This document shows, piece by piece, positions 2 through 36,767 of a DNA stretch of 39,821 nt. The position numbers and the translations under genes are program-made. Numbering within the stretch: the stretch's first letter is position 1; the number at the start of each line of letters is the position of its first letter. The DNA comes from an uncultured Candidatus Saccharibacteria bacterium (GTDB lineage: Bacteria > Patescibacteriota > Andersenbacteria > UBA10190), in the NCBI GenBank assembly GCA_964359735.1, contig CAYHTZ010000008.1, forward strand, positions 1 through 39,821. The letters run 5' to 3'. The notes beneath the pieces are model-generated. The model saw only the letters and a list, made by a program, of their open reading frames with translations. It did not search any database and was not told the origin of the DNA.

Positions 2-3000
2 GGATTGGGTCCAGGTGGAGGTGGTTTGGTTCAGGGTCAAGGCGGCGTCGAGATCGAGGGTGTCTTCGAATTGGGCAAAGTCTAGGGTATCGTCAGTGAT
101 TTCGGCCGCGGCGACGGCACCAGCTGGGAGGACAACTTCGCCGGTGCCGGTGCCATCGGTCGTAAGAGTAATGCTGGTGACATCAGCGCTGCCGATCGTG
201 ATCGCCCCAGCACCAGTAGTGTCGTAGACAGTATCTGCCGCACCAGCGTCATCGGCACCTAAGATGGTAACCGTGCCGGCAGTGTTGCGGATAAAGGTGA
301 AGGTGGCGTCAGCGGCTTCCGCGATATCAATCGAGTCACTGTTGGCACCAGTGATGTCGCCACCGGAGACGGTGAGGTCGCCCGTCACTGTGACATTCCC
401 GACCGTGCCACCATCAGCAACGGTCATCAAATCGTTGCCAGAGGTATCTTCGATGGTGAGTGTACCAGTGGCAAGTTCAGCCAGGCGAATGCCATCTAGT
501 AAGAGGAAGTTAGCACCGGCGTTCAAAGCATTCGTAATATCACCAGCTGAAGCATCAATGGCATCGACAATATCGCCAGCAGTGCCCGACGTAGTCGTAA
601 TCAGAATTGCGTCCGTCACGGCGCTAGCAGTGTTCTCAGCGTTACTGAGACGAATGAGAGCTTCATACGAGCCAGCACCAGCGTTGGCGGTGGCCGCGGA
701 ATTAATAACTAAGCCAAAGACATCGGCATCGGCGTCATTGGCGGTTAAGGTAGTGACAATACTTTCAAAGTCAGTCGCCGCAGTGGCACCATCATTCACG
801 GTAAGAGCCACGTTGATGCCATCCACGGCGGCATTCCCCGCCCCCACATTAATGTCTAAGACACCCGTGGTGGTGGTATTGGCAGTGGTAGAAGCATCAA
901 TCGTCAGGAAGCCAGATGCGGGGAAGGTAAAGTCAATCGTCGAGTCATCTTCGAACAGGGCAACATTCGTAGTCCCGTCTCGAACAGCAAAGTCTCCCGT
1001 AGAGTCAAGATCAACACTGAGAAGATTCGCGCCGAGATTGATGTCAGTGGCAGCGTCTACGTCGAGAGTGTCTTGGAATTGGGCGAAATCGAGGACATCG
1101 TCACCTACGTCGGCGGCGGCAATGGTGCCGTCTAAGATTTCGGTGGAATCAATGCTGCCGGCGGGCAAGGCTACCTCAGCAGTGCCGGTGCCATCGGTAG
1201 TGACGGTGACGCTAGTGACATCCGCAGAACCTATCGTAATAGCATTTGCTCCCCCGGCGTCATAGGTGGTGGCACCGTTGCCGGTAAAGGTGGTGCCGGT
1301 CAGCTGAAGGGTGGTAGCTGTCACATTGACAGTGCCATCGGTATTATTGTCGATAGTCTCATCATTCTGCAGCACGATGTCAGTGGTGACATCGGTGTCA
1401 TCAATATTAATGGCATTGGTGACCCCACCCGCAATGTTGCCAGTATTCACAATGCGTAAGGCATCAGTGACCACGGTGGAGCCGGTGGTGGAGGTGTCGG
1501 CATTGTCAAGAGTGAGAAGCGCGGCCACGGCGTTATCGGTAGCGTTGGTGGTAGCCTGGTTTTGAATGCGCATGGCCGTCTCGGTGTTTCCCGCGATGGT
1601 GGGGTTGTTGGTGAAATTAACGGTCAGGCCAGCAAAATCAGAGTTAGCAGCTGTGCCTTGGGCATTCGTGAGATCAAACTGGATCTGTTGGATGGCAGCA
1701 TCAGAGGTAGCAGTATTGGTGGCGTTGACATCTAAGGCTGTGCCAGTGGTGAGGCTAGTGGCGCTGTAGGTGAGCCCATCAGTGGTGGTGCCGGTGAATG
1801 ATTGGGTCCAGGTGGAGGTGGTTTGGTTCAGGGTCAAGGCGGCATCAAGGTCAAGGGTGTCTTCGAAGCTGTCGAAATCAAGGCTGTCATCGTCAACACT
1901 GATCGTGACTGTGTCGGTTGCTCCCGCGGTGGCGGTAAGATCTGCACCGGTAGCGATGGTGACAGTGTTGCCGTCGGTGATGGTTTGGGAAGTACCGGTA
2001 TCCCCGGCGAGAGTGAAGGAACTCATGCTGCTCGCCGCGCAACTCTGCCACTCAAAATCTCCGGTTGTTGTCTCATAGGTGAGGCATTCTTCGTCAACGG
2101 CGGCGTCGACGGCTTTGAGATCAGCTTCGAGTAAGGTGTCGTCGAGAATTTCGGTTGAGTTAATTGCGCCGGTGGGTAGGCTCACTTCACCGTCGCCCGT
2201 GCCATCGGTGGTGACGGTAAGGGCATCGAGGCCAGCAGAGCCGAGTGTAAGTGTGCCGCTGGCATCAACGCTGTAGGAAGTACCAGTAATAGTATTGGCA
2301 CCGACGTTGAGGGCATTGGTAATGTCAGCAGCGGAGGCGTCGATAGCGTCTACGATGTCCCCCGCTGTCCCAGATGTCGTAGTAATTAAGATAGCGTCGG
2401 TAACGGCGCCGGCGGTGTTTTCGGCGTTCGTTAAGACAATCAGACCTTCATAACTGCCGGCGGCAGCGTTCGTAGTGGCGGCTGAGGATATTACCAGTCC
2501 AAAGAGATCGGCATCAGCGTCGTTAGCAGTGAGAGTAGTGACAATTGCTTCTTGATCCGTGCCGGCGGTGGCACCGTCATTTGAGGTCAAGGCTACATTA
2601 ATACCGTCCACAGCGGCGTTGCCGGCGCCTACATTAATATCAAGTACACCTGTGGTTGTAGTGTTAGCTGTAGTTGAAGCATCAATGGTAAGAAACCCAG
2701 CCGCGGGGAAGGTGACATCAACGGTGGAGTCGTCTTCGAAGAGAACAACATTAGTCGTGCCGTCACGAATGGCGAAGTCGCCAGTGGAGTCGAGATCAAC
2801 TGAGAGAAGATTCGCTCCCAGATTAATGTCAGTGGCAGCATCTACATCCAGGGTGTCTTCGAAGTCCACGAAATCCAGAACGTCATCGGTGATGTTGCTG
2901 CCGCCCACGCCTGAGACGGAAATACTGTGGGCAATGCCTTCGCCCGTGGCGGCACCGGTGGTAGAGATGCCCGAACCAGCGGCAATGGTGGCAACGTAGT

Positions 3001-5704
3001 CACCAGTAGTATCGGTGGTTAAGGCCACGGCGTTAGCGGCTATGGCGAGGGTGCCGGTGGTGCCAATGGTGGCATCGCCGCCCATCACAACCGGGTTAAA
3101 GTTCGTGCCATCCGCCACCAGCACTGCCCCGGACGTATTGGTGGTCATGAATAGGTCGTCGCCGGAGATGGTGAGATCACCGGTCACGGTGGCATTACTG
3201 CTGGTCGTGACAGTGCCAGCCGTTAGCGTGATAGTGCCATCGGTGTTGTTATCAATGGTTTCATCGTTCTGTAAAACGATATCGGTCGTGATGTCAGCGT
3301 CATCAATGTTAATGGCGTTGGTGATACCTCCGGAGATATCACCAGAATTGATGATGCGTAAGGCATTCGTAGCCACGGTGGAGCCGGTCGTGGAGGTATC
3401 AGCATTGTCGAGCGTTAAGAGAGCAGTGACGGCATTGTCGGTGGTGTTCGAGGTGGCTTGGTTTTGTATACGTAGAGCCGTTTCTGTATTGCCCGCAACA
3501 GTCGGGTTATTCGTAAAGTTCACCGTAAGCCCAGCAAAGTTCGTGTTAGCGGCCGTGGCCTGGGCGTTAGTGAGGTCGAACTGCACTTGCTCGATTGCGG
3601 CATCGGCAGTGTGGGTGTTAGTGACATTCACATCAAGGCCAGTACCGGAGGTTAAGGAAGTAGCGCTGTAGGTGAAGCCATCGGTGGTAGTGCCGGTAAA
3701 CGATTGCGTCCAGGTGTTCGTGGTCTGGTTGAGAGTTAAGGCCGCATCGAGGTCGAGGGTGTCTTCGAAGTCCACGAAATCCAGAACGTCATCGGTGATG
3801 TTGCTGCCGCCCACGCCTGAGACGGAAATACTGTGGGCAATGCCTTCGCCCGTGGCGGCACCGGTGGTAGAGATGCCCGAACCAGCGGCAATGGTGGCAA
3901 CGTAGTCACCGGTGGTGTCGGTAGTTAGGGTGACGCTGTTGGCCTGGATTGTGAAAGCACCAGCGCTACTGACATCGACGTCACCCGAAGCATCGACTGG
4001 ATTAAAGTTGGTGCCGTCGGCAACCAGGATGAAGCCAGATGTATTGGTACCCATCACAAGATCATCACCAGAGATGGTAAGGTCGCCAGTTAAGGAAAGG
4101 TTGCCGGTCGTGCCAGCATCGGTGAGTGTCATTAATGTGTTCGTTCCATCGGTAAAAGTAAGGGTAGAAGCGTCTAGAGCAATGGTGTCGGCTAAGCTTG
4201 CACCATCAATTGAGTCTGCCTCCACAGAAATGGTGATGGTATCGGTGGCAGAAGCAACGGAGTTGATGCCCGTGCCGGCGGTGATGGTGAGCGTGTTACC
4301 GTCGCTGATGGTTTGACTGGTGCCGGACTCCCCAGCCACGGTGAACGAGGTCATACCGCCGCTCGAAGTTGACCACGAGAGTTGTCCGGATCCATCGGTA
4401 GTTAAAATTTGGTTAGTGCTACCGTCGGAAGATGGGAGAGTCCATAAGACACTGGAGCTAATAGTGCCCGGAGCTTGGAAGCCGATATAGTTATTTGATC
4501 CGGGTGCGGCAAAGCGAACGTCTGATTGGCCGGTGAGGGTGAGGTTGCCCGACATTTCATCGCCGGTATTGAGCACATAAATATCCTCAATCTGTTTCTC
4601 GTTGAGACAGTTAGTGCAATCTACGCCTCCCACGGTTACCTCTCCGAAATTTTTCCAGACAGGAGTTTGCCCCTTGCCTTGACTCGTAAGCACTTGGTTG
4701 GCATCGCCGGCTTGGCCATCAAGGGTGAGTGTGCCTTGGATGTCGAGTTTTGACCCACCGTGCGCGATAATATTTTTGTCGTGGTCGATAGTGAGAGTAT
4801 CGTGCTCATGGTCGCGCACAACGAACTTGGTTCCATCATCACGCAGATCTATATATAGGTATTCGGCGGGAGCGTAAATGTCGAAGGAGAGGCCGCCTTC
4901 CTTGTCATCAGCAGTAATGGCCCTCTCAATGCCAGGTTGCTGATCATAAATAGACTCGAAGGTTATGCCATGTCTTGCAGAAGTAGTCCCGGCCACGCGG
5001 CTGGCAGATGAAGACGAACCTGGCATCCTCTCTTCACTGGTAGTTATCCCCACTACTTCAGCCATCTGCTCTTCCGATGAGATATCCTGCTCTTCGCTTG
5101 GTTGAGGCTCTATGTTGTCTTTAGCCCACGTGATATAAGAAGGATTCGCTGCTTCCCCTCCTTGCAAAGTAGGCTGGCTAGCCGTCCTACCCCAGGCTGC
5201 CACGGCTACGAGAAAGAGAACTACTGCTGCCACGGCCCAGCGAGGATTGCGAACAAATAGCTTTTTGACTCTTTCAAAAAATGTCCCCGGCCTGGCAATA
5301 GTTTTTGGTCTACTTGGGACACTGTTTAGTAACGGCGCCGCCTTGAGGGCAGATTTTCGCTCGCGCCGACGGGCAGCCGCCACCCTAATGTATTGATGAA
5401 TCGTTTCCTCGGAATAGAGACGCTCTCCCCCTTCACTGCGTTTTGGGGTAAGGAGTCCGTCTTTTTCCAGACGGCGAAGAGTAGAAGCGGAAACCCCCAA
5501 CTTTTTGGCTGCTTCTGAAATGGTCAGGGGCTGTGTGGCCTTCACTCTTTCTAGCTCAGCGACATCAAAATACCGGTTCCTCCCCTTCAGCCGATTGGAG
5601 TGGATGATGCCTTTTTCGTCCCAGCGGCGGATTGTATCTATGGAAACACCAAGCAAGCGGGCAGCTTCCCGGATCGGTACCCAACGAGAGGAGTAAGACT
5701 CCAT
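2..5704 (-). CDS. Giant membrane-anchored protein: 2x MerR/HTH_17-type HTH + TM helix + long repetitive T/D/G/A-rich fibre-like region (3' end outside window)
   Basis: Manual translation from ATG 5704: MESYSSRWVPIREAARLLGVSIDTIRRWDEKG...LTISEAAKKLGVSASTLRRLEKDGLL...; TM WAVAAVVLFLVAVAAW (~5192-5239); NYIGFQAPGTISSSVLWTLPSSDGSTNQILTTDGSGQLSW (~4370-4490). The same frame reads ...TWTQS at positions 2-16. Absent from the ORF track because no stop lies in the window. Confidence 0.9.
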   Translation of the reverse strand, partial: MESYSSRWVPIREAARLLGVSIDTIRRWDEKGIIHSNRLKGRNRYFDVAELERVKATQPLTISEAAKKLGVSASTLRRLEKDGLLTPKRSEGGERLYSEETIHQYIRVAAARRRERKSALKAAPLLNSVPSRPKTIARPGTFFERVKKLFVRNPRWAVAAVVLFLVAVAAWGRTASQPTLQGGEAANPSYITWAKDNIEPQPSEEQDISSEEQMAEVVGITTSEERMPGSSSSASRVAGTTSARHGITFESIYDQQPGIERAITADDKEGGLSFDIYAPAEYLYIDLRDDGTKFVVRDHEHDTLTIDHDKNIIAHGGSKLDIQGTLTLDGQAGDANQVLTSQGKGQTPVWKNFGEVTVGGVDCTNCLNEKQIEDIYVLNTGDEMSGNLTLTGQSDVRFAAPGSNNYIGFQAPGTISSSVLWTLPSSDGSTNQILTTDGSGQLSWSTSSGGMTSFTVAGESGTSQTISDGNTLTITAGTGINSVASATDTITISVEADSIDGASLADTIALDASTLTFTDGTNTLMTLTDAGTTGNLSLTGDLTISGDDLVMGTNTSGFILVADGTNFNPVDASGDVDVSSAGAFTIQANSVTLTTDTTGDYVATIAAGSGISTTGAATGEGIAHSISVSGVGGSNITDDVLDFVDFEDTLDLDAALTLNQTTNTWTQSFTGTTTDGFTYSATSLTSGTGLDVNVTNTHTADAAIEQVQFDLTNAQATAANTNFAGLTVNFTNNPTVAGNTETALRIQNQATSNTTDNAVTALLTLDNADTSTTGSTVATNALRIINSGDISGGITNAINIDDADITTDIVLQNDETIDNNTDGTITLTAGTVTTSSNATVTGDLTISGDDLFMTTNTSGAVLVADGTNFNPVVMGGDATIGTTGTLAIAANAVALTTDTTGDYVATIAAGSGISTTGAATGEGIAHSISVSGVGGSNITDDVLDFVDFEDTLDVDAATDINLGANLLSVDLDSTGDFAIRDGTTNVVLFEDDSTVDVTFPAAGFLTIDASTTANTTTTGVLDINVGAGNAAVDGINVALTSNDGATAGTDQEAIVTTLTANDADADLFGLVISSAATTNAAAGSYEGLIVLTNAENTAGAVTDAILITTTSGTAGDIVDAIDASAADITNALNVGANTITGTSYSVDASGTLTLGSAGLDALTVTTDGTGDGEVSLPTGAINSTEILDDTLLEADLKAVDAAVDEECLTYETTTGDFEWQSCAASSMSSFTLAGDTGTSQTITDGNTVTIATGADLTATAGATDTVTISVDDDSLDFDSFEDTLDLDAALTLNQTTSTWTQSFTGTTTDGLTYSATSLTTGTALDVNATNTATSDAAIQQIQFDLTNAQGTAANSDFAGLTVNFTNNPTIAGNTETAMRIQNQATTNATDNAVAALLTLDNADTSTTGSTVVTDALRIVNTGNIAGGVTNAINIDDTDVTTDIVLQNDETIDNNTDGTVNVTATTLQLTGTTFTGNGATTYDAGGANAITIGSADVTSVTVTTDGTGTAEVALPAGSIDSTEILDGTIAAADVGDDVLDFAQFQDTLDVDAATDINLGANLLSVDLDSTGDFAVRDGTTNVALFEDDSTIDFTFPASGFLTIDASTTANTTTTGVLDINVGAGNAAVDGINVALTVNDGATAATDFESIVTTLTANDADADVFGLVINSAATANAGAGSYEALIRLSNAENTASAVTDAILITTTSGTAGDIVDAIDASAGDITNALNAGANFLLLDGIRLAELATGTLTIEDTSGNDLMTVADGGTVGNVTVTGDLTVSGGDITGANSDSIDIAEAADATFTFIRNTAGTVTILGADDAGAADTVYDTTGAGAITIGSADVTSITLTTDGTGTGEVVLPAGAVAAAEITDDTLDFAQFEDTLDLDAALTLNQTTSTWTQS
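2850..3910. repeat. Exact 155-bp direct repeat inside the giant ORF (2850-3004 and 3756-3910)
   Basis: Base-by-base identical AGGGTGTCTTCGAAGTCC...GCAACGTAGTCACC; offset 906 bp (in frame). Confidence 0.95.
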
Positions 5705-5806
5705 TACCTTTACGCTGAAGGATTAACCGCCCTTTCTTGCTTCCCCGAATGTTCTCCCCTATGCAAACCCTGTTCAATGGCTATGGTTTGCCCATTCAAT
5801 AGCTTA

Positions 5807-5815
5807 ATTTTACCA
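5807..5815 (-). promoter_or_regulatory. Extended -10 (TGGTAAAAT) upstream of the giant ORF
   Basis: TGnTAAAAT about 100 nt upstream of ATG 5704. Confidence 0.55.
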
Positions 5816-5871
5816 TGTTTTGCTACCTTCTTTTAGGGTCTGCAACTCTCATCTAGGATTACTTATCCACA

Positions 5872-5975
5872 GTTCGATGCGGTCGCCTTTGGCGACCTTA
5901 CTCACTGTAAACACCCTGACATCGAACTATCCTGAGTGAACGAAGTGAGTCGAAGGACACCACTTCGCTCGGTGG
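5872..5975. repeat. Cluster of REP-like palindromic repeats (TTCGA...CTCA / CCTGAG...GTCGAAGG type)
   Basis: TTCGATGCGGTCGCCTTTGGCGACCTTACTCACTGTAAAC and CCTGAGTGAACGAAGTGAGTCGAAGGA; related to CCCTTCGACAAGCTCAGGGCAAAC at 26237-26260. Confidence 0.6.
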
Positions 5976-5994
5976 GCTTCACAGTGCAGGCACC

Positions 5995-6360
5995 TCAACC
6001 CCTCACTTTTGCTCTTGAGGAGGACCCATAGAAGATTTCGCCTAGGATAACTAGGAATCCAGCCACAATGCATATATCAGCCAGGTTAAAGGCAAAGTTC
6101 TTTACTGTAAAAATGTCCAGGACTTGCTGTCGGACAAGAAGGTCGAGAAGGTTGCTACCCCCGCCCCCCACGATAAGAGCTAGGCCGCTGGAAGGATACT
6201 TAGCCAGGCCCCATAGCGCCACGACTGTGACCGCGAGCGCAAGCAGAGGGTGGTAGAGTTCTCCCTGTAAATAAGGAAGATGAAACGCTACGGCAGCAAG
6301 TTTAAGCCCCTGGTCAACAACTACAACACTGATAATGAGAGCCAAGAGGCGCCAACTCAT
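5995..6360 (-). CDS. lspA: Lipoprotein signal peptidase II (short form)
   Basis: DQxxK near the N-terminus, GGGGSNLLD, VLDIF and FNLAD catalytic motifs; hydrophobic. Confidence 0.85.
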   Translation of the reverse strand: MSWRLLALIISVVVVDQGLKLAAVAFHLPYLQGELYHPLLALAVTVVALWGLAKYPSSGLALIVGGGGSNLLDLLVRQQVLDIFTVKNFAFNLADICIVAGFLVILGEIFYGSSSRAKVRG

Positions 6361-6701
6361 GTAACGAGGGTGGTAGCGGCAGGGTTAGCGTGCAGGCGCT
6401 TTTCGGGGATAATCTCGCCTTTATCAGTAAGGCCGTATTTGCCTTCGGCGATACGGCTCAAGGCGGCATTCACTTCTCGGAGGCGTGCTTCCTTAGCCTC
6501 GGTGACGGCTGATTTAGCGGTGTAATCGGCAATTTCAGTAGCATTATCCTCTTCTCCCTGGCCATAAACCGGGAAATCGGCCACATAATTACCTTCTTGT
6601 TTGTGGGCACTGCCACCCAGCTCTTGCTCAAGGCGGCTCTTCTCTTCTTCTAAGAGGCGCCTCATTTCGGCTATAAACTCATCAGAATGGGCTTTAGGCA
6701 T
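6357..6701 (-). CDS. DksA/TraR family protein (no Cys4 zinc finger)
   Basis: Coiled coil with EEDNATE tip and ALSRIAEGKYG...IPEKRLHANPAAT. Start reassigned to ATG 6701 (MPKAHS), which has TACACT 6 nt upstream. Confidence 0.85.
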   Translation of the reverse strand: MPKAHSDEFIAEMRRLLEEEKSRLEQELGGSAHKQEGNYVADFPVYGQGEEDNATEIADYTAKSAVTEAKEARLREVNAALSRIAEGKYGLTDKGEIIPEKRLHANPAATTLVT

Positions 6702-6715
6702 GGGTTTAGTGTATT

Positions 6716-6769
6716 CCTTCGCCCGGCCGTCGCCAAGGCTATGGCCGGCAGGCGAGGCTACGCGGGGCA
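6716..6769. repeat. Nested palindromic mini-repeat (element within element)
   Basis: CCTTCGC[CCGGCCGTCGCCAAGGCTATGGCCGGCAGGC]GAGGCTACGCGGGGCA. Confidence 0.75.
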
Positions 6770-6779
6770 TTTTGGCGGC

Positions 6780-6835
6780 AAAATGAAAAAGGCCATCAAG
6801 AGCCAAATAGAAAGTTTATAGGGCCGATGGCCTTT
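6780..6835 (-). terminator. Terminator-like hairpin followed by a U-tract on the minus strand
   Basis: Minus strand: AAAGGCCATC...GATGGCCTTTTTCATTTT. Confidence 0.5.
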
Positions 6836-10189: not shown

Positions 10190-11404
10190 TTATTTCTGCT
10201 CAGCGGAGAGCGGGAAGACGAGTGAGACTTGCCTCCCATCTCCCCACGCCAGCAGCCCAAAAAGGCGGGGCAGGGAGAGTTTCTGCATGATTTCAGCGCT
10301 GAGACTGACATGCCACAGTGAGGCAGGAGGCGGGGAGGAAGCCAGGGTAGTGAGGGCCGGCGTGGTAGAAAGTACAGCCCGGCCAGGAGTTTGGCAGAGG
10401 AATAACGAGAGCTCAGAGTTGCGGCAGCCCTGGTCATCCGGAGGGGTAGTAAAGGCCGGGACGAGCGCGGCCGGGCGCTTCTCATACCCAATCGTACCGT
10501 CGGGCAGACGAAAGGCACGGGTGACGGGGTGAGCGTGGGCTACCTCTTCCCCCACCCAGGAATCGGCGAGTACGATAAAACTTTCTTCCTGCCTGACAGT
10601 TCCCAGACGAGCTTCGTGATTAATCCCTGCCTCAATGTGATCAAAGGCAGCGAGTGCCTCCACGAGATCAGGTTTGGAAGAACGCAAGCCAAACCTTTGC
10701 CAGAAATATTGATTCCACACTTGCCTTACGGGAGTAGGGAGTGCGGCAAGGTATGATCCCGGAACGGAGACCTGAAACCCGGCCGGTAAGGTAAAGGGCG
10801 GCACTTTTTCCGCGCTCGGCCAATTCTTTCCTTCGGAACCTGCTACAACAAGCATGTCGTTTCGGAGTTCAGCCACCAGGTGGAAATCGCCGGGCAGTAC
10901 GGGGAAGGCCGAGGCAGAAAGAGAGGCGAGCAACGTGGGTCGAAGAGGCAAGCGGTCGTGAAAGAGCCACGAGGGCAGGTGCTTCAGACCGGCGAGAAGC
11001 AGCTGGGATGACTTTCCCTGGAGAGCGTCTTCCCGCCGGCTTGCCAAAACAAGCAGGCCTAGGCGCCGGCTATGCCAACCCTGCTCGGTGAGGTTAGCTG
11101 GCAACCCGTAGAACGTACTCAACTTGGGCAGCAGCACGGCACTTTCGCCACTGCCCGAGCGCGTATAGACGACACGGGAAATGGAGCCGAGCGGCAGAGC
11201 AGAAAGCTCGTCAAGGTGGTACTGGCTGCGGAGGGACTCAAGAAGTTCTACTGCCTCACCTCCGTCGACATATACTTTTAGCGGAGCATCAGGGACGAGC
11301 CCCCACATGAAGTAGGCTGAAATGTGAATACAGTAGCTCGCCGCGGCGGCGGCGAGGATAAACCCAGTGATCAGGCCGATCCCGAGAAGCACTTTCTGGG
11401 ACAT
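10190..11404 (-). CDS. Hypothetical protein with N-terminal membrane anchor/signal
   Basis: 404-aa ORF, hydrophobic N-terminus, tight operon spacing with neighbours. Confidence 0.75.
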   Translation of the reverse strand: MSQKVLLGIGLITGFILAAAAASYCIHISAYFMWGLVPDAPLKVYVDGGEAVELLESLRSQYHLDELSALPLGSISRVVYTRSGSGESAVLLPKLSTFYGLPANLTEQGWHSRRLGLLVLASRREDALQGKSSQLLLAGLKHLPSWLFHDRLPLRPTLLASLSASAFPVLPGDFHLVAELRNDMLVVAGSEGKNWPSAEKVPPFTLPAGFQVSVPGSYLAALPTPVRQVWNQYFWQRFGLRSSKPDLVEALAAFDHIEAGINHEARLGTVRQEESFIVLADSWVGEEVAHAHPVTRAFRLPDGTIGYEKRPAALVPAFTTPPDDQGCRNSELSLFLCQTPGRAVLSTTPALTTLASSPPPASLWHVSLSAEIMQKLSLPRLFGLLAWGDGRQVSLVFPLSAEQK

Positions 11405-11438: not shown

Positions 11439-13451
11439 CTAGGGAGTGGAAGTTGGTGTTGCGGAAGGTGCAGGCGAGGTTGTCGGGCTGGGTACAAGCG
11501 ATGGGCTAGCCGCAGGAGCTTTTCCATGAACTATGACACCAGAAAGCCTAATACCGGTGGGAGTAACTTCCTGAGTAACGGCCGCGGGCAGTTTCGCCTC
11601 GGCCGCGGGTAGAAGATCCAAGAGCGGCGGGAAACTGAGGTATCCCAATAGGAAACCTTGAGTCACGGGTAGCACTCCCCATTCCTTGAGGAGTACATTC
11701 CACGGTTCACTGGCTTCTAAAGTGGGGGTGCGTTTCGCGGCGACATCCAGGAGAGTAAACATGCCTTCCTTTGAACTCGCAAAGCCTACGTTGTTTTCGC
11801 TGAGGGTGTAATCCAGCGCCTTCGTGGACCCCGCCACGTTCAGGAAGCGTAGGGGGGCTTGCTCGTACGCGCCATCGGCAAAGGCTAGGGTGACAGCAGG
11901 TTTTCCCGACATAATGAGGGGCAGTGCAGCGGAAAACGCTTGCTCGAGCGCAGTATCCCCCATAACTACGGGCGGGGTAACTTCCGCCGGTATGGTAAAG
12001 ATCAGGCCTATATCGGGCGACCCATCGCGGCCAACTCGCTCATAGAAAGCGTACGGGCTAGTAAGCTTTCGGACGAGGCCAGCCACGGCAGCTTGATCAA
12101 GCACGGATTTATCCAAGACGCGGGCTATGTCTTGCCAGGCAGCAATGTCGGACGCCAAATTGGCGCCCAGGCGCACAAAGGTGGCATCCGGCGGCAAACC
12201 GCTCAGAAAGGTTTGGTCTACTTGACCAGCGGGGGTTGGGGCAGCAGCACCAGTTGTTAGGCTCGCCTCCCCGAGGCCATCAAACAGGAGCGCCTGCCGA
12301 GAAGAGGTGAGGCGGGCGGACAGCAAAGCAGTTTTTACTGAGCCGGCGGCAAACTGCTCCCCTGCGCTGCTCTCACGGATTTGATTCAAGGCCGACTCGG
12401 CGAGGTAGATCCGGATAGGGCTTACGTCCCCGGTATCTTTGAAGCGGGTTTTTACCGCATCACTCATTCCCTTCCCCTGGGCCAAGGCTTCCAAAAATGG
12501 AGCTGAGTTTAAGGCGTGGAGAACGTACCAGCCGCTTACTTCATTAATCTGGCTGGGGCTAAACTGAGCTAATTCCTGGTCGCCCATTCCTTCTTTGGGA
12601 ACGAGCAAGTAGGGGCGACTTTCCCCTGAGAGCGTCACGTACATCAACTGTTTTACATTCGGATTGTTCAGGAAGACCTTGGGGTTACCTTGGAACAAGG
12701 TTTTATTCGAACTTTGCCAGAACCCCAAAAGTTCACTGCGATCGCTCCCAGCTTCAACCCGATAATGTAAGGCAATCGAGGCCGAAGCCGGTATGACCTC
12801 GGTTGCTTCCACCGCAGCTACCAGGGGTTGTTCCTGCGCGGGAGCTGGCGCCGAGACAAACGTTATAAACGCCCACGCTCCCCCACCAACGACAACAATG
12901 AAGAGCAGAATAAGGCCGCCCCACATGAAAAGACGGCGGCGATTGCGGCGCGCTACATGAGGCAGGGTGCCTATTGAGGTAGCTGCCGCCGCGGGGACGG
13001 GAGCAGGTTTTGGTTCATTGCGTGGGGGGAGAGGAAATTGGGCTGGGGCTGGAGGAGTTTTAGCGGCAGCGGTGGAGGTAACAGGGGCAGGCGAAGGCGG
13101 GGGGGTCAGTGGTTTCGGGGCTTGCCCCGTTCCTGACCCAGTCCCAACGGGCCTGGCAGTCCCGCCAGGGGCGGGACTTATCAGGAACGGGGTGGAAGAA
13201 GCAGGGGGCACGCTCGCAGGAGAAGGGGTAACCGGCGGCGGAGAGGCAGGTTTTGCCAAGCGAGAGGTAGTAATAATGGGGCCTAGGGCAGGTACTGCAG
13301 GCAGCGGCTTGGCCGGCCCAGCTTTTGCTAAACCTGCCTGGCCGGCAGGCAGGGCTTCGGCGGGCAAGTTAGACGGTTTTGCAGTACCGCTACCCGACAA
13401 ATCGTCCTTCATCGTGTGGATAAAAATGTTGTCCCCTCCCTGATCTGCCAT
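11439..13451 (-). CDS. Hypothetical bitopic membrane protein with Pro-rich N-terminus
   Basis: 670 aa; P/A/S/T-rich region, RRNRRR then TM helix, large C-terminal domain, PT-rich tail; TGGTAAAAT 6 nt before ATG. Confidence 0.8.
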   Translation of the reverse strand: MADQGGDNIFIHTMKDDLSGSGTAKPSNLPAEALPAGQAGLAKAGPAKPLPAVPALGPIITTSRLAKPASPPPVTPSPASVPPASSTPFLISPAPGGTARPVGTGSGTGQAPKPLTPPPSPAPVTSTAAAKTPPAPAQFPLPPRNEPKPAPVPAAAATSIGTLPHVARRNRRRLFMWGGLILLFIVVVGGGAWAFITFVSAPAPAQEQPLVAAVEATEVIPASASIALHYRVEAGSDRSELLGFWQSSNKTLFQGNPKVFLNNPNVKQLMYVTLSGESRPYLLVPKEGMGDQELAQFSPSQINEVSGWYVLHALNSAPFLEALAQGKGMSDAVKTRFKDTGDVSPIRIYLAESALNQIRESSAGEQFAAGSVKTALLSARLTSSRQALLFDGLGEASLTTGAAAPTPAGQVDQTFLSGLPPDATFVRLGANLASDIAAWQDIARVLDKSVLDQAAVAGLVRKLTSPYAFYERVGRDGSPDIGLIFTIPAEVTPPVVMGDTALEQAFSAALPLIMSGKPAVTLAFADGAYEQAPLRFLNVAGSTKALDYTLSENNVGFASSKEGMFTLLDVAAKRTPTLEASEPWNVLLKEWGVLPVTQGFLLGYLSFPPLLDLLPAAEAKLPAAVTQEVTPTGIRLSGVIVHGKAPAASPSLVPSPTTSPAPSATPTSTP
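13317..13368. repeat. Nested palindromic mini-repeat, in frame within CDS
   Basis: CCCAGCTTTTGCTAAA[CCTGCCTGGCCGGCAGGCAGG]GCTTCGGCGGGCAAG; translated as LPAEALPAGQAGLAKAG. Confidence 0.75.
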
Positions 13452-26101: not shown

Positions 26102-26184
26102 GCTGGGGTGGTGAAACGGCAGACACGCTAGCTTTAGGAGCTAGTACCCGAAAGGGTGTGCAGGTTCAAATCCTGTCCCCAGCA
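26102..26184 (+). tRNA. tRNA-Leu(TAG)
   Basis: Acceptor GCTGGGG/CCCCAGC, anticodon loop TTTAGGA, long variable arm, GTTCAAATCC. Confidence 0.95.
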
Positions 26185-36543: not shown

Positions 36544-36615
36544 TCGGGGATGCCGGATTCGAACCGGCGATCTCACGCACCCGAAGCGTGCGCGTTACCA
36601 CTACGCTAATCCCCG
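36544..36615 (-). tRNA. tRNA-Pro(CGG)
   Basis: CGGGGAT/ATCCCCG acceptor, loop TTCGGGT, GTTCGAATCC. Confidence 0.95.
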
Positions 36616-36616
36616 G

Positions 36617-36687
36617 TGGACTTAAGGGGAATCGAACCCCTGTCTCAGCAATGCGAATGCCGCGCACTACCACTGTGCTATAAGCCC
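36617..36687 (-). tRNA. tRNA-Ala(CGC)
   Basis: GGGCTTA/TAAGTCC acceptor with G3:U70, loop TTCGCAT. Confidence 0.95.
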
Positions 36688-36696
36688 GCGCCCTTG

Positions 36697-36767
36697 TGGA
36701 CCTATGGGGAGTCGAACCCCAGACTGATCCATGCCATGGATCCGTAATACCGTTTTACTATAGGCCC
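36697..36767 (-). tRNA. tRNA-Ala(GGC)
   Basis: GGGCCTA/TAGGTCC acceptor with G3:U70, loop ATGGCAT. Confidence 0.95.

Follow-up and report, generated by a model that had tools for sequence, protein, structure and literature searches.

A giant Patescibacteria gene with tandem MerR-type units, a membrane helix and a fibre-like ectodomain, and a conserved dyad upstream of its family

A giant gene at the end of a Patescibacteria contig

The window, by which we mean the whole stretch of 39,821 nucleotides analysed here, comes from a small-genome groundwater Patescibacterium (1.12-Mb genome) and opens inside a giant gene. Its frame (2..5704, minus strand) starts with ATG and continues for 1901 codons, stop-free up to the window's first base; upstream of the ATG the open frame adds just six codons (1907 aa altogether). 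The gene is present in a single copy in the source genome. Its neighbours are housekeeping genes (signal peptidase II, a DinG-like helicase-exonuclease, PNPase and a XerC/D-type recombinase) with no phage genes among them, and Rfam at gathering threshold found four tRNAs only in the window and no RNA family upstream of the giant gene.

Pfam recognises two MerR/MerR_1/HTH_17 units in the N-terminal head of the product. The first MerR-type winged-helix unit occupies aa 8-50 (..IREAARLLGVSIDTIRRWDEKG..; 5555..5683, minus strand) and the second aa 60-107 (..ISEAAKKLGVSASTLRRLEKDG..; 5384..5527, minus strand; Pfam bounds 61-97 and 60-107). PF00376 matches at E 2e-25 (88.7 bits against a cut-off of 28.2), its best stretch being aa 61-97, and PF13411 reaches 77.8 bits over the head against a cut-off of 21.6, which qualifies it as a MerR-family winged helix. 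The AF2 model of the head (pLDDT 80) likewise contains two b-a-a-wing-a units. The best Foldseek matches of this model are DNA-bound MerR-family structures, BldC, RacA (rank 9) and Xis, with a probability of 1.0 yet E above 1e-3 throughout, and PDB profile searches retrieve CueR (1.1e-6), BldC (7.8e-6) and RacA (1.7e-4). The NCBIfam equivalogs CueR, SoxR, ZntR, MerR and HspR all score far under their own cut-offs on the head. Across 10 relatives the head is the most conserved part of the protein, with 45-52% identity to the window's head and 27 invariant columns, the first unit included, and the MerR-type DNA-contact signature is conserved in both units. The long C-terminal coiled-coil dimerisation helix and the effector-binding domain of MerR-type proteins are absent; in their place stand a helix of about 22 residues (H99-121 in the model), a basic linker and a transmembrane (TM) helix, the stretch at aa 108-156 (5237..5383, minus strand) being presumably cytoplasmic. 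Homology thus supports a DNA-binding fold for the head, as the initial annotation had proposed, and DNA binding itself is predicted; the conserved dyad described below points the same way indirectly.

A Kyte-Doolittle scan of the 1901-aa frame finds exactly one hydrophobic segment, aa 157-175 (5180..5236, minus strand), whose N-terminal flank is basic and whose C-terminal flank is neutral to acidic. It is a putative signal anchor that would leave the N-terminus inside and the C-terminus outside. A single TM helix follows the DNA-binding units at 75 of 80 family loci, in 17/17 long proteins and in 83 of 94 representatives of at least 300 aa; the positive-inside bias across the family is moderate (49/75 loci; mean flank charge +2.0 vs +0.5). 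Because this helix is the sole hydrophobic segment, the ectodomain has no other export signal. The proposed architecture of tandem MerR-type HTH units, one TM helix and a huge ectodomain is therefore borne out by Pfam, hydropathy and the 1901-codon frame together.

The contig ends within this gene, in repeat-rich sequence, and one public contig carries a 906-bp in-frame skip between fibre repeats, so we considered whether a regulator gene and a fibre gene had been merged by an assembly or sequencing error, whether the start is false, or whether this is a prophage tail-fibre gene. Such an artefact is extremely improbable. Public contigs from four DNA runs in two studies, identical to the window, span the HTH-TM-ectodomain junction with 0 substitutions or indels, and neither they nor the frames of relatives are broken by a stop or a frameshift on the way from the HTH units to the fibre, the fault that the initial annotation had named as fatal. 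Of 34 other genomes in the same family, 14 likewise have long stop-free frames that begin with this N-terminal module of two HTH units and one TM helix (E<=1e-18; 18 places), and all 80 loci fetched elsewhere show it at the head of an uninterrupted frame, which excludes a chance read-through. An artefact would moreover leave the ectodomain stripped of its only export signal, and it sits poorly with the housekeeping neighbourhood. We regard the observation of a giant HTH-TM-fibre gene as confirmed.

A survey of this architecture, which the initial annotation had suggested, places the module at 233 loci in species-representative genomes across Patescibacteria, 80 of which entered the locus-level counts given here, and, at E<=1e-30, in 194 protein clusters among 1.84 billion representatives, nearly always at residues 1-130. 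Its partners are giant fibres, Kelch/FN3 ectodomains or a small SH3 domain, the last joined to the head in 6 of 7 proteins of 291-355 aa. One variant, P0019, has four modules ahead of the TM helix. Since the family is widespread and its ectodomains are very varied, the module is not fibre-specific. The initial annotation knew of no characterised protein of this kind; that holds in the literature we searched, where we found no description of the architecture, but the window's protein is no singleton.

Ectodomain and the Peptidase_S74 domain on a second contig

Beyond the membrane segment, aa 176-1901 (2..5179, minus strand) form an acidic repeat ectodomain rich in T (16.4%), A (12.9%), D (10.6%) and G (9.6%) and poor in K+R (1.9%), built of alternating modules of about 300 aa. 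Within the source genome, repeats of this kind are confined to the window's contig (C8) and contig C27. The C27 frame (3..4283, plus strand; 1427 aa) opens with an identical 12 residues, shares a near-identical 37-nt overlap with C8 in which the last two bases differ, and carries the only Peptidase_S74 domain in the genome (aa 1042-1094 of the C27 frame). PF13884 matches the C27 fragment at E 6.5e-10 in Pfam (39.6 bits against a cut-off of 22) and at 45.4 bits in the genome scan, and the S-D-x-R-x-K-x-N motif is invariant in five of five aligned C-termini. Elsewhere, P0011, L076, L078, L084, L089 and others hold the N-terminal module and the S74 or C-terminal domain within one uninterrupted ORF. 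None of the public-run contigs compared spans the window's first base and bridges C8 to C27, and the join is our inference; very probably, the missing end of the giant gene lies on C27, for a total of about 3,300 aa or more. The Peptidase_S74 chaperone foreseen at the C-terminus is accordingly present in a frame that continues the same repeat. Another 333 residues follow it, among them a stretch resembling a coiled coil and, at the C-terminal end, a conserved beta-rich domain common to family members; S74 usually forms the extreme C-terminus of tail fibres, but does not do so here.

Kinship with phage tail fibres is otherwise sparse. The initial annotation had likened the motif YIGFQAP..WTLPSSDG..QILTTDGSGQLSW to trimeric tail-fibre proteins, a resemblance that HMM, PHROG and PDB sequence searches do not confirm: neither the YIGFQAP region nor the C-terminal 400 aa returned anything significant from the PDB, and no tail-fibre HMM or PHROG matched along the shaft outside the S74 region. 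The sole PHROG tail match, phrog_33119 (4.9e-5), covers that region, and S74 is the only tail-fibre kinship that stood up among those tested. The ESM Atlas gave weak S74 leads (score 0.82), and an AF2 model of the last 400 aa, run as a monomer on a 5-row alignment, reached a pLDDT of 43.8. By analogy with tail fibres and endosialidases, S74 may drive trimerisation of the fibre and then cleave itself.

A conserved dyad upstream of module genes

A new feature to emerge from this analysis is a conserved dyad of about 30 bp, ACCTATGCA-TTGnTTAAnCAA-TGCATAGGT, just upstream of module genes. As many as 40 of the 80 upstream regions share 8- to 10-mers around CCTATGCA, where shuffles reach at most 14. 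Of 79 upstream 300-bp windows, 62 contain the half-site TGC[AC]TAG and the other 17 lack it altogether; it is present in 35/619 far-upstream and 10/326 intragenic windows. Strict half-site pairs number 23 in 23.5 kb of upstream sequence vs 6 in 1.01 Mb elsewhere, at 19 of the 80 loci only; relaxed dyads are found at 41 of 79 scanned loci, a few of them spurious in appearance, and the consensus of these 41 anchored dyads is a three-block palindrome. Half-sites are paired in direct as well as inverted arrangements, which favours a DNA site over an RNA hairpin.

We scanned five genomes whole, allowing up to three mismatches and using the reversed pattern as a control. Seven sites emerged, against none for the control: five directly upstream of a module gene, a sixth upstream of a paralogous TM-fibre gene that retains only an HTH remnant, and a seventh next to no such gene. 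In these five genomes, then, the dyad is nearly confined to module genes. Among 401 genomes sampled from the phylum, one contained the strict 8+8 palindrome, away from any HTH gene, and two its reversed control; with so strict a pattern and so patchy a family, this comparison is uninformative. The dyad also appears to covary with the first recognition helix: a first HTH reading VSIATVRRW pairs with TGT[AG]TA[GT]A half-sites, and VS[IV]DT..RRW loci pair with TGCATAGG, though the former rests on just three loci, probably related, and a fourth 'A' locus has no dyad.

The window's own copy is weak. The operator-like dyad ACCATAGCC-N-TGCATAGGG (5756..5787, minus strand), 52-83 nt before the ATG, combines one good half-site, TGCATAGG (5758-5765), with a degenerate one 22 bp upstream. 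The 1.12-Mb genome has just three occurrences of CATAG-N17-CATAG and yielded no other convincing dyad, and further TGCATAGG copies lie mostly inside ORFs. By eye, an extended -10-like element, TGGTAAAAT, sits 19 nt upstream of the dyad (5807..5815, minus strand; coordinates hand-counted, and the string occurs twice on the strand), and in close relatives, as in the window, the dyad follows a TGnTAnAAT-like element by 9-35 nt. A promoter scan of 5600-6100 returned 0 promoter-like sites and no full sigma-70 site, so the placement of the dyad downstream of a promoter is a by-eye reading only. Two terminator-like sites in 5600-6100 lie on the plus strand, inside or adjoining the gene start, and seem irrelevant.

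These distributions bear on whether the protein might be a structural tether between nucleoid and envelope, comparable to RacA, its head binding DNA with low specificity and anchoring the chromosome or holding the fibre base with no regulatory role, the dyad belonging to another factor. RacA, a MerR-type chromosome anchor, is among both the PDB and the Foldseek matches of the head; the union of the head with a cell-wall-binding SH3 domain in most short members resembles a DNA-membrane-wall staple; and the four modules of P0019 would suit the same role. Near-confinement of the dyad to module genes and its covariation with the recognition helix, within the limits of three probably related loci, argue the other way, as does the single gene copy, which would supply few molecules for a general tether. 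On balance we hold a purely structural role to be unlikely.

Candidate functions and known counterparts

The reading we prefer, at a probability of roughly 55%, makes the giant protein bitopic: a DNA-binding protein, tethered to the membrane, whose target is an operator at its own gene and whose likely role is autorepression. In the cytoplasm, some 155 residues would provide two different tandem MerR-type winged-helix units followed by a helix and a basic linker; a single membrane-spanning helix would be the sole export signal; and outside would stand an acidic repeat fibre of at least 3,100 residues, S74 and then the conserved beta-rich domain, with S74 expected to trimerise the fibre and cut itself off. 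The head, still tethered, would bind the ~30-bp palindromic operator between the -10-like element and its own start codon, each tandem HTH pair covering one 15-bp half (an outer TGCATAGG block and an inner TTAAnCAA block), so that two chains would occupy the palindrome in a 2x2 geometry. The likely outcome would be repression to cap production of a very expensive surface protein, with the side effect of tying the locus to the membrane. Binding of the dyad by the head, the 2x2 geometry and the repression are all proposals, and another regulator could own the dyad. A trimeric fibre mismatches a two-fold symmetric operator. The cost-control rationale is weakened by the short SH3-type members, in which the module is not tied to a costly giant gene.

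We also considered that the head might act after release. Substrates of regulated intramembrane proteolysis have a cytoplasmic regulator, one TM helix and a large outer domain, as this protein appears to. In a Notch-, RsgI- or MYRF-like scheme the tethered head would be inactive or sequestered until engagement or assembly of the fibre led to a cut in or close to the membrane, perhaps by a site-2 protease, freeing the tandem HTH to act on the dyad and possibly other sites. The genome encodes an M50 site-2 protease (C3:55369-56379, 181 bits), the dyad evidence fits this scheme equally well, and an autoproteolytic S74 domain is present, as is reported for MYRF (PMC3742440, PMC3742443). Yet the M50 gene says little, as all 14 of 14 control genomes have one and such proteases are near-universal; no rhomboid was found in the genome; some 3,000 residues of ectodomain separate the S74 site from the membrane, so cleavage there cannot free the head; and in cells this small a tethered head can probably reach DNA unreleased. 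We therefore rate release as unlikely.

A bolder extension, that the family acts as a contact or force sensor, strikes us as no more probable than release. Engagement of a host cell or wall would be relayed through the fibre or SH3 domain and the TM helix to a head bound at the operators of its own and paralogous fibre genes, changing its oligomerisation or releasing it and so switching a surface programme. If true, this would give ultra-small episymbiotic bacteria, with their few conventional regulators, a Notch/MYRF-like pathway made of one protein. The initial annotation's interpretation, a cytoplasmic DNA-binding head on a surface fibre that might couple attachment to transcription or tether the chromosome at the contact site of an episymbiont, is partly supported, in its architecture and in the fold of the head.

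Patescibacteria account for much of bacterial diversity, and they spend their lives attached to other cells with few regulators that can be recognised; this family bears on how they might sense and control that attachment. In it a single polypeptide unites the cell's largest surface structure with a DNA-binding head that looks sequence-specific, and the cell surface may thus be wired directly to gene control. The predicted operator makes the idea directly testable, a 125-residue protein and an oligonucleotide of 30 bp being enough.

Among known systems, RodZ offers a precedent for a different role: it has a cytoplasmic N-terminal Xre-type HTH that binds MreB, one TM helix and an outer domain, a layout that the giant protein shares. 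By that precedent the HTH units would bind a cytoskeletal or secretion partner rather than DNA and would position or export the ectodomain, and the joining of the module to unrelated ectodomains is what a generic anchor would predict. But the units here are MerR-type with a conserved DNA-contact signature, not Xre-type; no RodZ family (neither the Xre-type HTH_25 nor DUF4115) appears among the Pfam matches listed; and a protein-binding adaptor would leave the gene-linked dyad unexplained. Such a role seems to us quite doubtful.

For the preferred reading, a tethered head at its own operator, the nearest parallels are ToxR, CadC and TcpP, bitopic one-component regulators that act on DNA while membrane-bound. 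They too combine a cytoplasmic winged-helix DNA-binding domain, a single TM helix and an outer domain, the topology of the giant protein being read from flank charge. Theirs is a single OmpR/PhoB-type domain, whereas here there are two tandem MerR-type units, and no OmpR/PhoB-type winged helix (Trans_reg_C) is among the best 25 of 27 Pfam families at E<=1; their outer part is small and sensory, but in this family its size runs from about 100 aa (SH3) to more than 3,000 aa (fibre). Should the tethered head bind its own gene, the family would be a MerR-type counterpart of ToxR-like regulators and would offer a natural case in which a gene product holds its own locus at the membrane. The winged-helix unit of the head is shared with BldC, RacA, Xis/excisionase and the fused-dimer HspR, of which the first three likewise lack an effector domain, and the tandem HspR model NF047377 matches the head at E 9.9e-8, far below its cut-off; unlike the giant protein, none of them has a membrane anchor or a surface protein attached. 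The operators of canonical MerR proteins sit within a long -35/-10 spacer, whereas here the dyad appears to follow the -10-like element seen by eye. Phage tail fibres and endosialidases likewise end a long repetitive fibre with an S74 domain bearing the S-D-x-R-x-K motif, but the present gene is chromosomal and cellular, with an N-terminal TM anchor in place of a virion adaptor and the long extension after the S74 match. Lastly, the eukaryotic transcription factor MYRF, itself membrane-bound and equipped with a phage-type S74/ICA domain, is reported to place a DNA-binding domain, a TM helix and the S74 intramolecular chaperone in one polypeptide, as here (PMC3742440, PMC3742443). Its DNA-binding domain is Ndt80-type rather than MerR-type, and its order, DNA-binding domain-S74-TM, lets the S74 cut free the DNA-binding domain, whereas in the order DNA-binding domain-TM-fibre-S74 the cut would fall outside the cell. 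The giant protein would thus be a bacterial polypeptide with all three parts of MYRF, arranged differently.

The giant gene and its putative continuation

The giant gene starts with an ATG on the minus strand and runs from 5704 down to 2, 1901 codons free of stops to the contig end; upstream of the ATG the open frame continues for six codons only. All 25 Pfam families shown, of 27 matched, are of HTH type and fall within aa 5-123, with no non-HTH family among those 25 in the scan of the 1901-aa frame; PF00376 (E 2e-25), PF13411 (6.7e-22) and PF12728 (3.2e-15) match two stretches apiece. The NCBIfam neighbours of these HTH units are HspR, excisionase, SoxR, CueR and BldC, every equivalog scoring far under its cut-off. 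Hydropathy identified one hydrophobic segment in total (aa 157-175), strongly basic on its near flank and neutral to acidic beyond, after which the remaining 1,726 residues form an ectodomain of alternating ~300-aa modules, rich in T/A/D/G and almost devoid of K and R. Public groundwater DNA from two studies (four runs, which may include the source sample) gave contigs that match the HTH-TM-ectodomain junction with no substitution or indel. ORF calling, Pfam, hydropathy and these contigs bear out the stop-free frame, two MerR-type HTH units, single TM and T/A/D/G-rich repeats described by the initial annotation, and we regard this architecture as close to certain. One contig, from public run X2, lacks 906 bp of the window: it passes straight from 2849 to 3756, an in-frame jump over 302 codons between repeat copies (2834-3000 and 3740-3906) that are 97% identical. 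Either the population is polymorphic in repeat number or the assembly collapsed here.

The window, contig C8, belongs to a 1.12-Mb genome of 41 contigs with a completeness rating of 100%. Another of these contigs, C27, opens with a 5'-open plus-strand frame of 1427 codons, whose first 12 residues, TLNQTTSTWTQS, are identical to those that end the window frame. The two contigs overlap by 37 nt of DNA, mismatched only at the window's last two bases, and the fibre's repeats, as DNA and as protein, are confined to C8 and C27 among the genome's contigs. The initial annotation had suggested looking for a Peptidase_S74 chaperone domain (S74) at the C-terminus; the C27 frame carries one (aa 1042-1094, 39.6 bits vs a cut-off of 22), the single S74 match in the whole genome, followed by a coiled-coil-like stretch, a beta-rich domain ending in ..FSWVALG and a proline-rich tail. 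Motifs S-D-x-R-x-K-x-N and G-x-x-A-Q are invariant across five aligned C-termini. Complete ORFs that start with the tandem-HTH-TM arrangement and are closed by the same C-terminal domain and/or S74 occur among proteins from our searches (P0011, P0005, P0007 and P0009) and genomic loci (L044, L058, L072, L076, L078, L084 and L089). From the overlap, the contig-limited repeats, the lone S74 and these complete ORFs we infer that C8 (minus) and C27 (plus) carry a single gene at least about 3,316 codons long; the join stays inferential because no bridging contig was seen among contigs of public runs matching the window.

Directly upstream of the giant gene lies a 121-aa signal peptidase II-like ORF (5995-6360, minus) whose match to PF01252 covers just the C-terminal half of that family. 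It overlaps by 4 bases a 149-aa ORF without a family (6357-6806, minus); the pair may represent a single lspA gene that is split or has a misassigned start. The window also holds adjacent minus-strand ORFs of 404 and 670 aa (10190-11404 and 11439-13451) with no Pfam family at E<=1e-3, three adjacent tRNA genes (36544-36767, minus) and one further tRNA (26102-26184, plus). A prophage tail fibre was ruled out: the neighbours are signal peptidase II, a DinG-like exonuclease-helicase, a sodium:solute symporter, a TrmB-type regulator, PNPase, an NYN-domain protein and a XerC/D-type recombinase.

A family defined by its head

The HTH-HTH-TM-fibre architecture, which the initial annotation proposed to survey across genomes, recurs. 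With each species represented by one genome, a pattern scan located the N-terminal module of tandem HTH units at 233 loci; 1.84 billion cluster representatives, searched exhaustively with a profile, yielded 194 matches at E<=1e-30, 943 at 1e-10 and 13,638 at 1e-3, the looser thresholds taking in ordinary MerR proteins. Nearly all of the 150 top-scoring profile matches carry the module at residues 1-130, and they are up to 5145 aa long. With the first 200 residues as query, uninterrupted long frames without internal stops appeared in 14 of 34 other same-family genomes at E<=1e-18, and in 16 of the 34 when the threshold is E<=1e-3, the longest reaching 3129 codons, and a word-indexed search limited to proteins of 1045-3327 aa gave 16 proteins, including one of 1571 aa with MerR and S74 in a single chain and one with Kelch/FN3 domains outside. 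Titles of the 80 retained loci (L025-L104) name Saccharibacteria/Saccharimonadia, Davies-, Woese-, Levyi-, Chisholm-, Pace- and Andersenbacteria, Microgenomates, 'Patescibacteria group', one Eisenbacteria and about 25 'uncultured Gammaproteobacteria' (third-party assemblies), a title that looks unreliable on Patescibacteria-type gene records.

A lone hydrophobic segment follows the module at 75 of the 80 loci (weaker in three more; two end before it), in 17/17 long proteins and in 83/94 representatives of 300 aa or more. An assembly artefact is essentially excluded by the recurrence of the fusion at the 80 loci, by the relatives' stop-free frames and by the identical junction in public contigs, which shows neither stop nor frameshift; the giant protein is a family member and no singleton. 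The head is the conserved part of the family (45-52% identity to the window's head in ten same-family relatives; 27 invariant columns), its two HTH units being consistently distinct (..GVS[IV]DT[VI]RRW.. vs ..S.ST[LV]RRL..), and the ectodomains are mutually unrelated.

Complete members span 291 aa to over 3,400 aa, and a bacterial SH3 domain ends six of seven scanned proteins of 291-355 aa. In P0019 (623 aa), four tandem modules in a row, or eight HTH units, precede a single TM; P0020 (289 aa) has two modules, and P0021 (1015 aa) shows 12 profile stretches, an array of MerR-type units without a hydrophobic segment. The SH3-ended short members and P0019 favour a rival reading of the head as a RacA-like, non-specific staple between nucleoid and envelope.

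Head fold and an upstream dyad

An AlphaFold2 model of the head (11-row alignment, pLDDT 80.4) contains two strand-helix-helix-wing-helix units and then a helix at 99-121. Foldseek against the PDB placed DNA-bound MerR-family structures on top (MtaN, NmlR, SoxR, GlnR), followed by BldC, RacA and mycobacteriophage Xis, with single units superposing at 1.0-1.7 A over about 50 residues; match probability was 1.0, yet every E-value exceeded 1e-3. A PDB profile search returned CueR (1.1e-6), BldC (7.8e-6) and RacA (1.7e-4). These close structural relatives are all DNA binders; the head could alternatively be a RodZ-like protein adaptor.

Within 300 bp upstream of 79 loci and the window, 8- to 10-mers around CCTATGCA/TGCATAGG occur in up to 40 of 80 regions vs at most 14 in shuffles. 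Half-sites pair at a spacing of 21-22 bp, inverted (ACCTATGCA..TGCATAGGT) or direct, and 41 anchored dyads, a few of which look spurious, give the consensus taCCTAtGcAtTG.tTAA.CAATgCATAGGtA, a palindrome of ~30 bp whose outer and inner blocks are conserved. This conserved dyad before module genes is new. TGC[AC]TAG is present on either strand in 62/79 upstream windows vs 35/619 windows >1 kb upstream and 10/326 intragenic windows; the 23.5 kb of upstream DNA contains 23 strict half-site pairs, from 19 loci, and the remaining 1.01 Mb has 6, four of them just 337-983 bp upstream of module genes. Scanning five whole genomes for the palindrome (up to 3 mismatches) yielded seven sites: five directly upstream of a module gene, one directly upstream of a paralogous TM-plus-fibre gene with a decayed HTH, and one (3 mismatches) without a module gene. 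The reversed pattern gave 0 sites in the same genomes. Where the first recognition helix reads VSIATVRRW (three loci), half-sites TGTGTAGA, TGTATAGA or TGTGTATAC replace TGCATAGG; this covariation, probably a single evolutionary event, fits direct recognition of the dyad. Because direct-repeat versions cannot form hairpins, we read the dyad as a DNA site, not an RNA structure.

Close relatives have a TGnTAnAAT element 9-35 nt ahead of the dyad, which itself precedes the ribosome-binding region or even surrounds it. The window's own degenerate copy (5756-5787, minus; ACCATAGCC..TGCATAGGGG) has one good half-site and lies 19 nt after TGGTAAAAT; CATAG-N17-CATAG has three copies only in this genome.

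A paralogous fibre gene, L110 (G422:C32:15915-18944), keeps the dyad (about 1501-1530), a TTGACA element and the TM; its head has decayed to a second-wing remnant (..LEKRGKITPVRSEGGTRLYS..), and a start codon is not obvious. The intact paralogue of that genome may regulate it in trans. Contig C9 of genome G000 (about 23.5-27 kb) carries a type IV pilin-like cluster (GFTLIELLV-type N-termini) and a prepilin-peptidase-like ORF, with three TGC[AC]TAGG half-sites inside 600 bp, one overlapping a pilin-like gene's ATG (C9:25140); being single half-sites, they may be chance. Saccharimonadia-labelled loci (e.g. L070, L078, L082, L083, L091, L095, L101) share a second block, TA(A/T)ACTATGCATAAGCTTTC(T/A)TAACAG, 60-72 nt before the ATG, with a half-site-like CTATGCA right after a -10-like hexamer.

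Proposed mechanism and known systems

We propose that the giant protein lies N-in/C-out, head inside and fibre outside, given its flank charges and a TM that is the sole possible export signal; family-wide, the N-flank is more positive in 49/75 loci (mean +2.0 vs +0.5). In endosialidases and tail fibres S74 mediates trimerisation and self-cleavage, and by analogy the fibre would trimerise and then self-cleave at the S74 serine. The head is predicted to bind its own dyad, two chains with two HTH units each covering the palindrome, and the dyad's position after a -10-like element suggests autorepression. We put this whole package at a probability of roughly 0.55; its dyad-binding prediction is sharp and cheap to test. 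The head might instead be released by regulated proteolysis; the genome encodes a site-2 protease, but such proteases are universal, and a search of the genome for a rhomboid found none.

Full-text searches of the main texts of openly available papers found nothing on MerR with transmembrane in Candidate Phyla Radiation or on Peptidase_S74 in Saccharibacteria, and nothing relevant on membrane-tethered or -anchored MerR; among matches listed for MerR with Saccharibacteria surface protein, none was relevant. With neither effector domain nor long dimerisation helix, the giant protein does not qualify as a canonical MerR regulator, and it likewise falls outside the definition of a phage tail fibre. 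With eukaryotic MYRF (PMC3742440, PMC3742443) it shares a DNA-binding domain, a TM and S74; unlike MYRF, its order is DBD-TM-fibre-S74, so an S74 cut cannot free the head. Its logic is like that of ToxR/CadC-type bitopic regulators, except that its head is tandem MerR-type and its outer part can be a 3,000-residue fibre.
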